IMG/VR virus record: IMGVR_UViG_3300045988_010479
Source of the DNA: a virus
Strand: one strand, 5' to 3'
DNA length: 6,008 bases
Shown piece after piece: positions 1 through 6,008 of this stretch (position 1 is its first letter; each line of letters begins with the position of its first letter). The notes beneath the pieces were generated by a model. It had not been told where the DNA came from, ran no database searches, and saw only the letters and a list, made by a program, of their open reading frames with translations. Made by a program: the position numbers and the translations under genes.

Positions 1-662
1 ATTTTTTTTGTAACGTATCCTGCAACATATCTATATGTCTCTGGCACTGCTTGTGCTATCTGTATTTGACCCATGTCCCATAGTTCTGATAGCCATTTAC
101 TTGTGTAATATCCGTTGTGCTGTATCTTGTATAGGTGCTCAAGGTCTGTTGGTTGCCATCCATACAGTATCATATGATAATGCGGCCTAGCTGTTTGTTC
201 TCCGTACTCTCCGGCTATAAAATAGCGTAATTTGCCGCTATAAGCCTTTCTGAGACGTTTTAAGAATTTTTGAATGTCAGTATACAGTAACGTTTGTACG
301 CTTTCAGGGCGCTTCTCTCCTGGCTTCCAGACGTATTGTACTTTTCGCATGATTTCGCCTGTGTTTATTATCATGCCCGGTACATGGTCATCATCATAAG
401 TTAATGTGATAAACCAAACTTCTTCTCTTGGATAATCTCTTGCTTCTAATTCTATTCGTGTTGTCCAGTCCTCACGCTGTCGAATTCTGCATCCGATACA
501 CTGCCCACATGGTATTAGCATGACATCTTTTCTATACATCAAATCTTCATATCTTAGCTGCTTCCCGCTTATTTCAGAAAAGCGGGCAAGTGAATACACT
601 TGCCCACTTATGTCTTTATTTTCCGGGTTGTACAGCCTTATTAATGGCTTGTAGCAACTCAC
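1..662 (-). CDS. VP4: Replication initiation protein Rep (VP4), N-terminal ~2/3. Continues across the circular junction into 5552-5983 (bases 1-74 = 5910-5983). Full protein 339 aa.
   Basis: Manual minus-strand translation of 662->1 is open in frame with the 5552..5983 ORF: VSCYKPLIRLYNPENKD...MLIPCGQCIGCRIRQREDWTTRIELE...VWFITLTYDDDH (RCR motif I, ~396-413)...RPHYHMILYG (HUH motif II, ~171-185)...then MGQIQ... of the 3' copy. Not in the ORF track because it is truncated at the window edge. Start assigned to GTG at 662-660, which overlaps the VP2 TGA stop (GTGA), on the assumption that the N-terminus M-x-C-x-x-P-L matches other gokushovirus VP4 N-termini. Alternative ATG starts at 539 or 521 have no better SD. 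Confidence 0.85.
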   Translation of the reverse strand, partial: MSCYKPLIRLYNPENKDISGQVYSLARFSEISGKQLRYEDLMYRKDVMLIPCGQCIGCRIRQREDWTTRIELEARDYPREEVWFITLTYDDDHVPGMIINTGEIMRKVQYVWKPGEKRPESVQTLLYTDIQKFLKRLRKAYSGKLRYFIAGEYGEQTARPHYHMILYGWQPTDLEHLYKIQHNGYYTSKWLSELWDMGQIQIAQAVPETYRYVAGYVTKK

Positions 663-3270: not shown

Positions 3271-3677
3271 TTTTCCTCCTCCTTTGCTTTAGGTTCTGCT
3301 TTTGATTCTGTTTTTGCTCTTTCCGCTGCCATTTTTTGCAGTTCTTCAAGTTTCATGGCGTTTGCCTGTGCTGTTACAATCATGCGGTGATACTCGTGAA
3401 TGTTCTGCGGAAAATCTGTAATATCCGTGTATGTATCGCTTAACGCTCCTTCTGATAGGCTTTTCAGAAACTGCGGGTCGAAGCTTGCTTTTCGGACGAT
3501 GTTTTTGATATCACATTCGTCTGCATAGCTTTCAATTTCCTGCTGGATGTCGATTGGTGCAGTTTCTTGCAGTACTTCTTGTCCTTTTTCGTCCTTCGTC
3601 CATACGTACTGTTTCCGGAGCTTTTCTCCTGATTCAGAAAAGAAGGGCTTTCGCCCTTCTTCGTATCGTTTATTCAC
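3267..3677 (-). CDS. VP3: Internal scaffolding protein VP3 (136 aa from GTG 3677). The ORF is open to a TTG at 3737 (156 aa), which is the ORF-track start.
   Basis: Contains YADECDIKNIVRKASFDPQFL, matching the conserved ECDINNIV box of gokushovirus VP3. No ATG upstream of this box. GTG 3677 is preceded by GGGAGGGCAAGCCGC (SD GGGAGG, 9-nt spacer) and overlaps the stop of the upstream 79-aa ORF by 8 nt (GTGAATAA). TTG 3737 has no SD. Sits immediately 5' of VP1. Confidence 0.75.
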   Translation of the reverse strand: MNKRYEEGRKPFFSESGEKLRKQYVWTKDEKGQEVLQETAPIDIQQEIESYADECDIKNIVRKASFDPQFLKSLSEGALSDTYTDITDFPQNIHEYHRMIVTAQANAMKLEELQKMAAERAKTESKAEPKAKEEEK

Positions 3678-4274: not shown

Positions 4275-4397
4275 TTACTCCTTTCCTTTTTCGTTGATGC
4301 TATCGTGCAGTGCATGATAGATTTCGTCTAGTTTTTCCAGAATCTGCATCATGATGCGGACTGCCTGCTTGACGTCTTTAATGGAAATTAGTGCCAT
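4275..4397 (-). CDS. Hypothetical small protein, 40 aa (MALISIKDVKQAVRIMMQILEKLDEIYHALHDSINEKGKE). The ORF-track version is extended 5' to an internal GTG at 4520 inside the peptidase gene.
   Basis: ATG 4397-4395 preceded by GAAAGGGGGTATAAA (strong SD, 6-7 nt spacer) and placed 1 nt after the peptidase TAA (TAAAATG). Exactly fills the gap between the peptidase and the 75-aa ORF. The 5' extension to 4520 would overlap the peptidase by 122 nt and lacks an SD. Confidence 0.45.
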   Translation of the reverse strand: MALISIKDVKQAVRIMMQILEKLDEIYHALHDSINEKGKE

Positions 4398-4398
4398 T

Positions 4399-4791
4399 TT
4401 ATACCCCCTTTCTGTACTTTTTTCCGGGTCGCACATCAAAGTGTACCCAGCTTTTATATACGATAATGCCGCATTCATCCGGGACGATTTCATCCAGTTT
4501 GTTGGCAAGTTCTTTTGCACTCATGTCATTGACCCGGATATCTGCTGCCATTCCGCGCATGTGGTAGCTGTATTTTGCTCCGTTGCATTTTTTGTTCCAT
4601 TCTGGTGTTCTGTATCCGCTGGTGATGATTACCGGCTTTCCTAGTTTATTTCGGAGGATGTCCAGAACGTTATATAAGTAGTCGTCTATGAATACTACCG
4701 GACTGCCGTCTTTACATGCAAATTCTTTTACTTTGAAGTGTTTTGCAAGTTGTACGTTTCCGTCTGTGTTCATGATATAGCTTTTAAGCAT
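4399..4791 (-). CDS. Peptidase_M15 family (M15A, zinc D-Ala-D-Ala carboxypeptidase-like, YcbK/endolysin-type) protein, 130 aa from ATG 4791. The ORF is open to TTG 4815 (138 aa).
   Basis: LAKHFKVKEFACKDGS N-terminal box plus zinc-ligand arrangement SYHMRGMAADIRV (H...D) and VHFDVR (H), characteristic of Peptidase_M15. ATG 4791 has AAGGAG 9 nt upstream and overlaps the TAA of the preceding 56-aa ORF (TAAGGAG). No signal peptide or TM segment. Confidence 0.8.
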   Translation of the reverse strand: MLKSYIMNTDGNVQLAKHFKVKEFACKDGSPVVFIDDYLYNVLDILRNKLGKPVIITSGYRTPEWNKKCNGAKYSYHMRGMAADIRVNDMSAKELANKLDEIVPDECGIIVYKSWVHFDVRPGKKYRKGV

Positions 4792-5400: not shown

Positions 5401-5444
5401 TGCGCGTGCGCGCGTGCGCGCTATCGCGCGTGCGTGCACGTGCG
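5401..5444. repeat. Alternating purine-pyrimidine (CG/TG) tract, Z-DNA-prone: TGCGCGTGCGCGCGTGCGCGC-TAT-CGCGCGTGCGTGCACGTGCG
   Basis: A 21-nt and a 20-nt perfectly alternating Pu/Py run separated by TAT. About 75% GC, embedded in AT-rich non-coding DNA (TTAATATTATAT immediately upstream). Internal GCGCGTGCGCGC repeats. Confidence 0.8.
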
Positions 5445-5458
5445 AATTAGATTACCTG

Positions 5459-5476
5459 ATAGACTGAATAGACTGA
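5459..5476. repeat. Tandem 9-bp repeat ATAGACTGA x2 (context cTGATAGACTGAATAGACTGATACATAG)
   Basis: Exact tandem copies at 5459-5467 and 5468-5476. Confidence 0.7.
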
Positions 5477-5500
5477 TACATAGAGCTTTTAAACGACAAT

Positions 5501-5532
5501 AGCCCAGTACCTTACTTGATAGGTACTGGGCT
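5501..5532. promoter_or_regulatory. Perfect 12-bp-stem hairpin (AGCCCAGTACCT / AGGTACTGGGCT) with 8-nt loop TACTTGAT, 20-50 nt 3' of the rep stop on the coding strand. Candidate rep transcription terminator and/or replication-origin stem-loop.
   Basis: Exact inverted repeat read from the sequence. A second small hairpin GACACTgttaaAGTGTC (5541-5557) covers the rep stop codon. Confidence 0.6.
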
Positions 5533-5551
5533 AGGTGACACTATGACACTG

Positions 5552-6008
5552 TTAAAGTGTCCCCCTCTTCTTCATCTGCTTCTTTATCACTCTCTCTTTC
5601 GTTTTACACTGTTCTGCAAAGTTTGCATTTTCATACTTAAGTCGGTTCTCTGCGATTGCTGCTGCTTGTCTGTTCTGCTTAATTCTCCACAATCTTTGTG
5701 GGTTTTCAGCTTCCATCATTTTTTCATAATAGCGCGGAATTTGTGCGTGTTTGCCGTTTGTGCATTGGATGTAGCCTTGTCTCCAGATTTCTTCTTTGTG
5801 CTTTTTGTAATAGTTATCTCCTAGGCCTGGCTTAAGGCTCATACGTGCAAAAGGTTTTTGCTGCCCTAGTTCATAGTATGCGTTTGCTTTCTGGCCGTCA
5901 ATTTCGTACATTTTTTTTGTAACGTATCCTGCAACATATCTATATGTCTCTGGCACTGCTTGTGCTATCTGTATTTGACCCATGTCCCATAGTTCTGATA
6001 GCCATTTA
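5552..6008 (-). CDS. VP4: Replication initiation protein Rep (VP4), C-terminal part (143 aa from the internal Met plus upstream codons), truncated by the window end. Upstream part is 100-662 on the circle.
   Basis: ORF track 5552..5983 (-). Contains RYVAGYVTKKMYEID (RCR motif III with two catalytic Tyr, near-identical to phiX174 gpA YVAKYVNKK) at 5912-5938. Stop TAA at 5552-5554. The frame stays open from 5984 to 6008, consistent with continuation at 75-662. Confidence 0.9.
   Translation of the reverse strand, partial: KWLSELWDMGQIQIAQAVPETYRYVAGYVTKKMYEIDGQKANAYYELGQQKPFARMSLKPGLGDNYYKKHKEEIWRQGYIQCTNGKHAQIPRYYEKMMEAENPQRLWRIKQNRQAAAIAENRLKYENANFAEQCKTKERVIKKQMKKRGTL
5910..6008. repeat. Exact 99-bp direct repeat of bases 1-99 (terminal redundancy from wrapping a circular 5909-bp genome, or the start of a second tandem unit)
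   Basis: Bases 1-99 and 5910-6008 are identical base for base. The repeat runs to the window end, so its true extent is unknown. Confidence 0.95.

Follow-up and report, generated by a model that had tools for sequence, protein, structure and literature searches.

Genome organization of the window

The window, by which is meant the whole stretch of 6,008 nucleotides that was analysed, begins and ends with an exact direct repeat of 99 nt (1-99 = 5910-6008). The window is therefore circular, with a length of 5,909 nt, and constitutes a complete genome in which the terminal repeat is an assembly overlap. Every gene supported by homology, comprising VP1, VP2, VP3, VP4/Rep, a VP5-like gene and a peptidase M15, is carried by the minus strand (Table 1). 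VP4/Rep matches PF23343 (REP_ORF2-G2P; E = 3.5e-17) and contains the HUH motif HYH as well as the two-tyrosine motif YVAGYVTK; the genome thus encodes a cognate two-tyrosine HUH Rep. The nearest GenBank records are gokushoviruses of the human and pig gut, such as KT264791 and KX513868 (nucleotide identity of 74-85%), while IMG/VR holds more than 230 contigs whose Rep is 90-95% identical to that of the window. The peptidase M15 gene, which likely encodes a lysis enzyme, is common to the window clade and its sister clades.

Table 1. Coordinates of genes and sequence features in the window
Feature	Position	Strand	Description
VP1		-	Phage_F, E = 2e-140
VP2		-	
VP3 scaffold		-	
VP5-like ORF		-	
Peptidase M15	4399-4791	-	PF08291, E = 4e-22
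rep (VP4), 3' part	5552-6008	-	TAA stop at 5552-5554; reading on through the circular junction
rep (VP4), 5' part	1-539	-	ATG at 539-537
Predicted origin hairpin	5500-5533	+	Perfect 13-bp stem (5500-5512/5521-5533), 8-nt loop
Loop	5513-5520	+	TACTTGAT; invariant across the clade
3' tail	5534-5549	+	GGTGACAC (5534-5541), repeated as ATGACAC (5543-5549); putative 'key' bound by Rep
Match to covariance model R1	5496-5546	+	50.6 bits, E = 2.7e-9
Candidate associated element	5452-5476	+	TTACCTGATAG (5452-5462), closely resembling the loop motif, then ATAGACTGA twice (5459-5476)

Structure of the rep-proximal hairpin

The intergenic hairpin next to the rep stop displays two 13-nt arms that are 100% complementary, and is the longest perfect inverted repeat with a short loop in the window. 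An earlier note on this DNA had reported a 12-bp stem with an 8-nt loop lying 20 nt past the rep stop; the hairpin is real, although its stem measures 13 bp and is separated from the TAA by 18 nt. Folding of the plus strand as ssDNA gave -15.3 kcal/mol (z = -7.1), a value equalled by none of 200 shuffles, and folding of the minus strand gave -14.6 kcal/mol (z = -6.9). On the plus strand, which is the non-coding strand, the loop reads tACTTGATAgg, and the clade-invariant TACTTGATA at 5513-5521 matches the phiX174 nick core (C)AACTTG|ATA, where the bar marks the cut. Both the match to this core and its location on the strand complementary to the genes, as noticed previously, are thus confirmed, since all recognisable genes occupy the minus strand. 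The GACAC of the 3' tail begins 18 nt past G5518, within the range of 17-18 nt seen in 51/52 of the microviral elements described below. A search for the complete pattern ACTTGAT-N12-14-GTGACAC gave a single match in the window (5514-5541, plus strand) and none in 200 shuffles. A search of the whole window against Rfam at E ≤ 1 returned zero matches.

The TGACAC of the tail is tandemly duplicated in the window, as in L040 and L034, and one to three copies stand between the stem and the rep stop in relatives. In addition, 60 nt upstream and on the same strand, TTACCTGATAG is a near copy of the loop sequence TTACTTGATAG; relatives carry CACTTGATAG or TATTTGATAG at this place, and the block ...TCAGTCTATTCAGTCTATCAA... 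is kept. This near copy and the repeats that follow it (5452-5476) may serve Rep as an additional site of recognition or termination, or act as a decoy.

Conservation of the hairpin within the clade

The position of the hairpin in relatives, a point raised by the earlier note, is well conserved: with few exceptions, the 80 IMG/VR and 3 GenBank relatives have it at a distance of 10-20 nt from the rep stop. Alignment of the 36 distinct versions found in the clade, all read in the plus orientation, revealed that 95% of the stem cells are paired, as compared with 16-53% when the register is slid. Four stem pairs display two-sided changes (19 cells), as in CCCAG/CTGGG replaced by CCAAG/CTTGG or CCTAG/CTAGG, and the observed covariation was matched by none of 500 shuffles. 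Variation is distributed asymmetrically along the element. The loop and GTGACAC are invariant in all clade members, and the part of the element that starts with the loop, TACTTGATAGGTACTGGGCTAGGTGACAC, hardly varies in sequence or length, indels and substitutions being restricted to the inner 5' arm. Where only one side of a stem pair has changed, G·T wobbles outnumber A·C mismatches by 10:1 on the ACTTGAT strand (6:1 in the diverse elements described below). This bias means that the hairpin is kept foldable on the ACTTGAT strand and not in the rep mRNA.

A hairpin element common to the Gokushovirinae

Similar elements were identified in distant members of the subfamily. In Chp2 (2904-2941), a perfect 14-bp hairpin with loop TCTACTTGAT is located in an intergenic region of the coding strand (ctagcgtataacag-TCTACTTGAT-ctgttatacgctag-GTGAT), and SpV4 (1637-1660) contains ctaaacTTGATAAGCAAGgtttag-GTGAT, also intergenic and on the coding strand, with AACTTGATA placed within a hairpin. 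In six further diverse GenBank gokushoviruses, the best hairpin of the genome has a loop of the CTTGAT, CTCGAT or CTTGT type followed by a (G)TGAC(A) tail, again on the coding strand and intergenic, generally directly upstream of rep. Two scans of IMG/VR for ACTTGAT-N-GTGACAC identified ~105 Microviridae contigs, of which the 53 from the first scan were inspected individually and those from the second were checked for the spacing-constrained pattern and orientation only. In 53/53 of the first-scan matches the motif occupies the loop of a stem of 4-16 bp, mostly ≤11 bp. From one clade to another the stem sequence is entirely different, whereas the loop and the tail are retained. The gap between ACTTGAT and GTGACAC in the microviral matches was 13 nt (35 elements), 14 nt (16) or 12 nt (1), whereas it was distributed flatly over 8-20 nt in chance matches from other phages. 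In 51/52 microviral elements the gap is therefore 13-14 nt, which places GAC 17-18 nt past G|A.

Among 44 diverse elements that lie in the same orientation as the genes, all 11 stem pairs change on both sides, a degree of covariation reached by 0/500 shuffles. A covariance model, termed R1, was constructed from these 44 elements, zero of which came from the window clade. R1 nevertheless recognised the plus-strand hairpin of the window with high significance (Table 1), covering the covarying stem, the ACTTGAT loop and the GTGACACC tail, while the minus strand yielded only 5500-5533 with 6.7 bits (E = 7). R1 found no second, sense-strand element over the window genome.

Judged from these sequence comparisons, the window hairpin is one copy of a subfamily-wide Microviridae element and its ACTTGAT match is not due to chance, because the motif and its tail recur at fixed spacing in Chp2, SpV4 and ~100 genomes. 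The suggestion that the match was coincidental can thus be set aside. The estimate on which it was based, ~0.2 occurrences per genome, is correct for a bare 8-mer and inapplicable here, because the motif belongs to a conserved, geometrically constrained element.

Comparison with phiX174 and other replication origins

In phiX174 (Bullavirinae), viral-strand synthesis originates at the 30-nt gpA site, CAACTTG|ATATTAATAACACTATAGACCAC, in which a spacer separates the recognition sequence from the 'key' that is bound. The annotated origin (nick at 4306, within ACTTG|AT) may be written CAACTTG|ATATTAATAACACTATA-GACCACC, and the gokushovirus consensus yTACTTG|AT(G/A)TAACTGTGCTAGGT-GACACC. Common to phiX174 and the window are the ACTTGAT heptamer, the cut position, which is a predicted one in the window, and a GAC(C)ACC-type block 17-18 nt past G|A, GACCACC lying 17 nt past the nick in phiX174 and GACAC 18 nt past the predicted nick in the window. 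Furthermore, both genomes encode homologous two-tyrosine HUH Reps. Major differences involve the spacer and its surroundings. The phiX174 spacer is AT-rich, unstructured and located inside gene A on the coding strand, which is the packaged strand, whereas the spacer of the window is the 3' arm of a 13-bp hairpin and the site is intergenic, on the non-coding strand opposite to the genes. The homology to phiX174 rests on ~10-12 nt and their spacing, the phiX174 origin has no hairpin, and R1 found no match in phiX174. A similarity of ACACTATGACAC of the window to ACACTATAGACCAC of phiX was rejected as over-reading, the second TGACAC copy being absent or different in many relatives.

Chp2, SpV4 and ~100 metagenomic Gokushovirinae present the same stem, loop motif, tail and spacing as the window. 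The usual element lies on the coding strand, mostly directly upstream of rep, whereas in the window it lies on the non-coding strand directly downstream; neither the window nor its sister clades L094-L098 display the intergenic, gene-strand location upstream of rep.

Outside the Microviridae, the double-strand origins of the pC194/pUB110 plasmid family combine a CTTGATA core with an HUH-type Rep, as in the window. The rolling-circle origin of pC194 holds this heptamer within TTCTTTCTTATCTTGATAATAAGG, and its nick presumably falls between G and A. These plasmids differ in having a Rep with one tyrosine plus glutamate, other binding sequences and no GTGACAC tail. The origins of CRESS-DNA viruses (circoviruses, geminiviruses and nanoviruses) consist of a stem-loop with a nonanucleotide and adjacent iterons, and resemble the window element in having the nick site in a hairpin loop and Rep-binding repeats by the stem; these families also vary in the sense of their packaged strand with respect to the genes. 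Their nick motif, TAGTATTAC / TAATATTAC, is however unrelated, their Rep is a single-tyrosine protein of superfamily-2 type fused to an SF3 helicase, and their hosts are eukaryotes. The general statement that HUH Reps nick in the loops of such stems is upheld. Finally, the Cap-Rep hairpins of Roodoodoovirinae and Reekeekeevirinae are, by their published description, alike in being intergenic, located by rep and endowed with compensatory substitutions and a conserved loop (PMC9865509). They have been tied tentatively to the initiation of the complementary (minus) strand, and that report notes neither homology to the phiX nick site nor strand inversion (PMC9865509). The window element would be a variant of the HUH-Rep rolling-circle origin, distinguished by its presence on the 'wrong' strand. 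A literature search in which papers from subscription journals were thinly represented returned no description of an origin, a hairpin, strand polarity or antisense packaging in gokushoviruses, and the loop motif, searched as text, was found in primer lists only.

Orientation of the element and strand asymmetries

The element is located on the coding strand in 85/110 sampled genomes. The inverted state is found in the window clade, in sister clades that include GenBank L094-L098, in L144, in L297 and in L183 together with L282. Parsimony on a neighbour-joining tree of VP1 from the 110 genomes resolved 4 independent inversions, with L144, L297 and L183+L282 nested among marine genomes that have near-identical stems in the usual orientation.

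Base composition at the four-fold degenerate sites of VP1 follows the orientation of the element in these lineages. The values for A and T (A4/T4) are.53/.11 in the window, as compared with.05/.64 in phiX174,.26/.51 in Chp2 and.28/.65 in SpV4. In 4/4 inverted lineages A4 greatly exceeds T4 (T4 of.03-.19), while in their nearest same-orientation relatives T4 greatly exceeds A4 (T4 of.45-.80). As an example, L297 (.28/.03) differs from L126 (.09/.68), with which it shares 78.5% VP1 identity, and so does L144 (.47/.12; 72.5% VP1 identity to L126). At the level of lineages the association between orientation and skew is therefore 4/4 against a background of ~22%, contig-level tests ignoring phylogeny. 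This background is given by the 19/85 same-orientation genomes in which A4 also exceeds T4, some of them as A-rich as the window (L164.80/.12, L286.55/.12, L289.57/.10), and base composition alone was consequently rejected as a marker of the packaged strand. The strongly A-rich same-orientation genomes are L164, L176, L188, L206, L259, L286, L289 and L299 (A4 up to.80, T4 down to.10).

The cultured phiMH2K (L087; A4.46, T4.27) was considered as an example with an inverted origin and discarded. A pattern search of both its strands did not find the element and R1 gave only a weak match on the same strand (3295-3345, 21 bits); phiMH2K is thus an A-rich exception and not a support.

Rare variants in rep display a further asymmetry. 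Transitions counted on the coding strand gave a purine:pyrimidine ratio of 63:16 in the window clade and 13:22 in a same-orientation gut clade composed of 50-60% relatives of the L089 Rep (Fisher p = 2.4e-5). For G>A versus C>T the counts, which are small, were 20 vs 6 and 6 vs 11, respectively (Fisher p = 0.011). This pattern is as expected if C-to-T damage hits the antisense strand in the window clade, although the rare-variant counts could reflect selection. Taken together, the wobbles, the four-fold skew and the transition spectrum point to the plus (antisense) strand as the single-stranded one.

Two of the inverted elements have unusual features. In L094 (1019-1066) the stem is lengthened to 19 bp and GGTGACA is present on both strands, so that the loop alone (AGCCTTGTCA vs TGACAAGGCT) gives the orientation; R1 scores its two strands at 25 and 18 bits. 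The L144 contig (8,974 nt) contains two copies of the element, at 2056-2104 and 6764-6813, both inverted. Its ORF sets are duplicated as well, which suggests a head-to-tail dimer of a ~4.7-kb genome.

A predicted rolling-circle origin on the antisense strand

By analogy with phiX174, the hairpin and its 3' tail (plus strand, ~5496-5549) probably constitute a Rep-dependent rolling-circle origin of viral-strand synthesis, homologous to the 30-nt phiX174 origin. The stem would extrude in the supercoiled RF or in displaced ssDNA, so that the loop presents TACTTGAT, and the HUH two-tyrosine VP4 would bind the GTGACAC 'key' located 18 nt downstream. In analogy with cleavage of CAACTTG|ATA in phiX174, we infer that VP4 cuts at G5518|A5519, within ...CCTTACTTGATAGG... 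of the plus strand, and would become covalently linked to the 5' end. The 3'-OH would then prime synthesis with displacement of the nicked strand and, after one round, Rep would cleave the regenerated site again and ligate the displaced circle. With the element opposite to all genes, nicking should fall on the antisense strand, and it is this strand that would be displaced and enter the procapsids, making the window a negative-sense microvirus. Packaging of the antisense strand, which is deduced from the homology and the phiX174 mechanism, appears somewhat more likely than not, and the reading as a whole, namely an inverted phiX-type origin with nicking, displacement and packaging of the antisense strand, is favoured with moderate confidence. 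The premise of the earlier note that the virion strand equals the coding strand is in any case called into question by the inverted element and the strand asymmetries.

The most serious alternative accepts the hairpin as the Rep nick site and proposes that the coding strand is packaged nonetheless, either because the inverted origin serves RF amplification only or because both strands are made and the sense strand is selected. Positive polarity is the textbook state of Microviridae, and A-rich coding strands also occur with the usual orientation, such that a reversed skew alone is no proof. Against this, phiX174 is established to package the strand that is displaced upon nicking by Rep, and no separate packaging signal is known. 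In addition, the window genome has no second, sense-strand element recognised by R1, the 4 independent inversions are all accompanied by a flipped skew, and the wobble and transition asymmetries favour the antisense strand as the single-stranded one. Packaging of the coding strand is therefore considered unlikely.

Slightly less credible is the proposal that the hairpin is a complementary-strand origin and not a Rep nick site. Once folded in the encapsidated ssDNA, it would attract host primase, the primosome or RNA polymerase, with which conversion into the double-stranded form would begin. Models for such a role are the n' site of phiX174, the oric of G4 and the minus origin of M13. A conserved ssDNA hairpin whose wobble asymmetry reveals selection on one strand would suit this function, and the tentative link made for the Roodoodoovirus and Reekeekeevirus Cap-Rep hairpins (PMC9865509) points in the same direction. 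However, what is conserved is ACTTG|AT with GAC(C)ACC 17-18 nt further on, as in the phiX174 plus origin and unlike known priming sites, and the strict spacing of motif and tail suits a single protein that binds and cuts. The two functions are compatible, and a complementary-strand origin at this site would likewise require packaging of the plus (antisense) strand.

The hairpin had also been regarded as being equally well an intrinsic (rho-independent) terminator of the rep mRNA, an assignment that fits poorly and is now highly doubtful. The hairpin does follow the rep stop after 18 nt, its palindromic stem would fold in RNA too, and in a loose consensus scan it was the top minus-strand site (13 pairs, 7 of them G-C, tail TTGTCGTTTA). 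Yet the coding-strand tail varies in close relatives (ATTGTCG, TTTGTCG, AGGTG, AACCCC, AGACTC) and the T-tract is thus not conserved, while the conserved loop and tail belong to the other strand and match a model of elements that elsewhere lie upstream of rep. One-sided stem changes, moreover, produce C·A mismatches in the mRNA at a ratio of 10:1, and not the G·U pairs on the coding strand that a selected RNA hairpin would show, and a canonical terminator with a true T-run exists elsewhere in the genome (1556-1537). Pausing or termination of rep transcription may be a secondary role of the predicted origin hairpin, though the hairpin is conserved for another reason.

A tyrosine recombinase site of the dif, lox or att type used for integration is extremely improbable and was rejected: although 13-bp inverted arms around an 8-bp spacer resemble loxP and FRT, and XerCD-mediated integration at phage dif motifs is on record for some gokushoviruses (PMC7062461), the spacer varies in length among close relatives owing to indels and mismatches in one arm, stems are wholly different between clades while loop and tail are kept, there is no likeness to the 11+6+11 layout of dif, and the element of the clade has 0 matches among representative genomes that cover 185,579 species of bacteria and archaea.

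The rolling-circle origin proposed here provides a concrete predicted nick site at single-nucleotide resolution (G5518|A5519) together with a subfamily-wide consensus. Microviridae, which rank among the most abundant phages of the human gut, are treated as uniformly positive-sense; the occurrence of an inverted origin in four lineages leads to the prediction that some members are negative-sense. That the window clade, which is abundant in human and pig gut, and at least 3 other lineages are negative-sense ssDNA phages is a proposal to which we give slightly better than an even chance. A similarly narrow preference attaches to a further part of the negative-sense reading, namely that the ~50-nt origin cassette was inverted at least 4 times in Gokushovirinae, each inversion being followed by a reversal of strand bias. 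If true, rolling-circle forks would run head-on against transcription, and these lineages would offer a natural experiment on the effect of packaging polarity on base composition. Polarity also bears on the reading of strand-specific virome libraries, the orientation of contigs, the mutational spectra of ssDNA phages and the design of synthetic gokushoviruses.

Other intergenic features

Additional structured or repeated sequences were observed in the intergenic regions of the window. Positions 5401-5444 comprise a G+C-rich tract of alternating purines and pyrimidines, GCGCGTGC, with an 8-nt period, amid an A+T-rich genome. The tract forms a hairpin of 20 bp closed by a TATC loop, and similar tracts (CGCGCGTGCGCAC) are present in most relatives, the one in L094 (1208-1248) being a GC hairpin of 13 bp. 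The window tract could be prone to form Z-DNA, or could be a complementary-strand priming site.

Between 5178 and 5302 (plus strand) there are about ten intergenic copies of TTTCAACA (ACTTTCAACA five times), which have an iteron-like look. In L027 the TTTCAACA repeat immediately follows the hairpin and is on the opposite strand, which shows that even close relatives differ by shuffling and inversion of intergenic modules.

Between VP1 and VP2, the minus strand contains at 1537-1556 a canonical terminator-like hairpin, AGCCCGGAGAAATCCGGGCT, followed by ATTTTTAAAT. It is likely an attenuator past the capsid gene, and recurs in sister clades as AGCCCGGGG...CCCCGGGCT ATTTTTAT.
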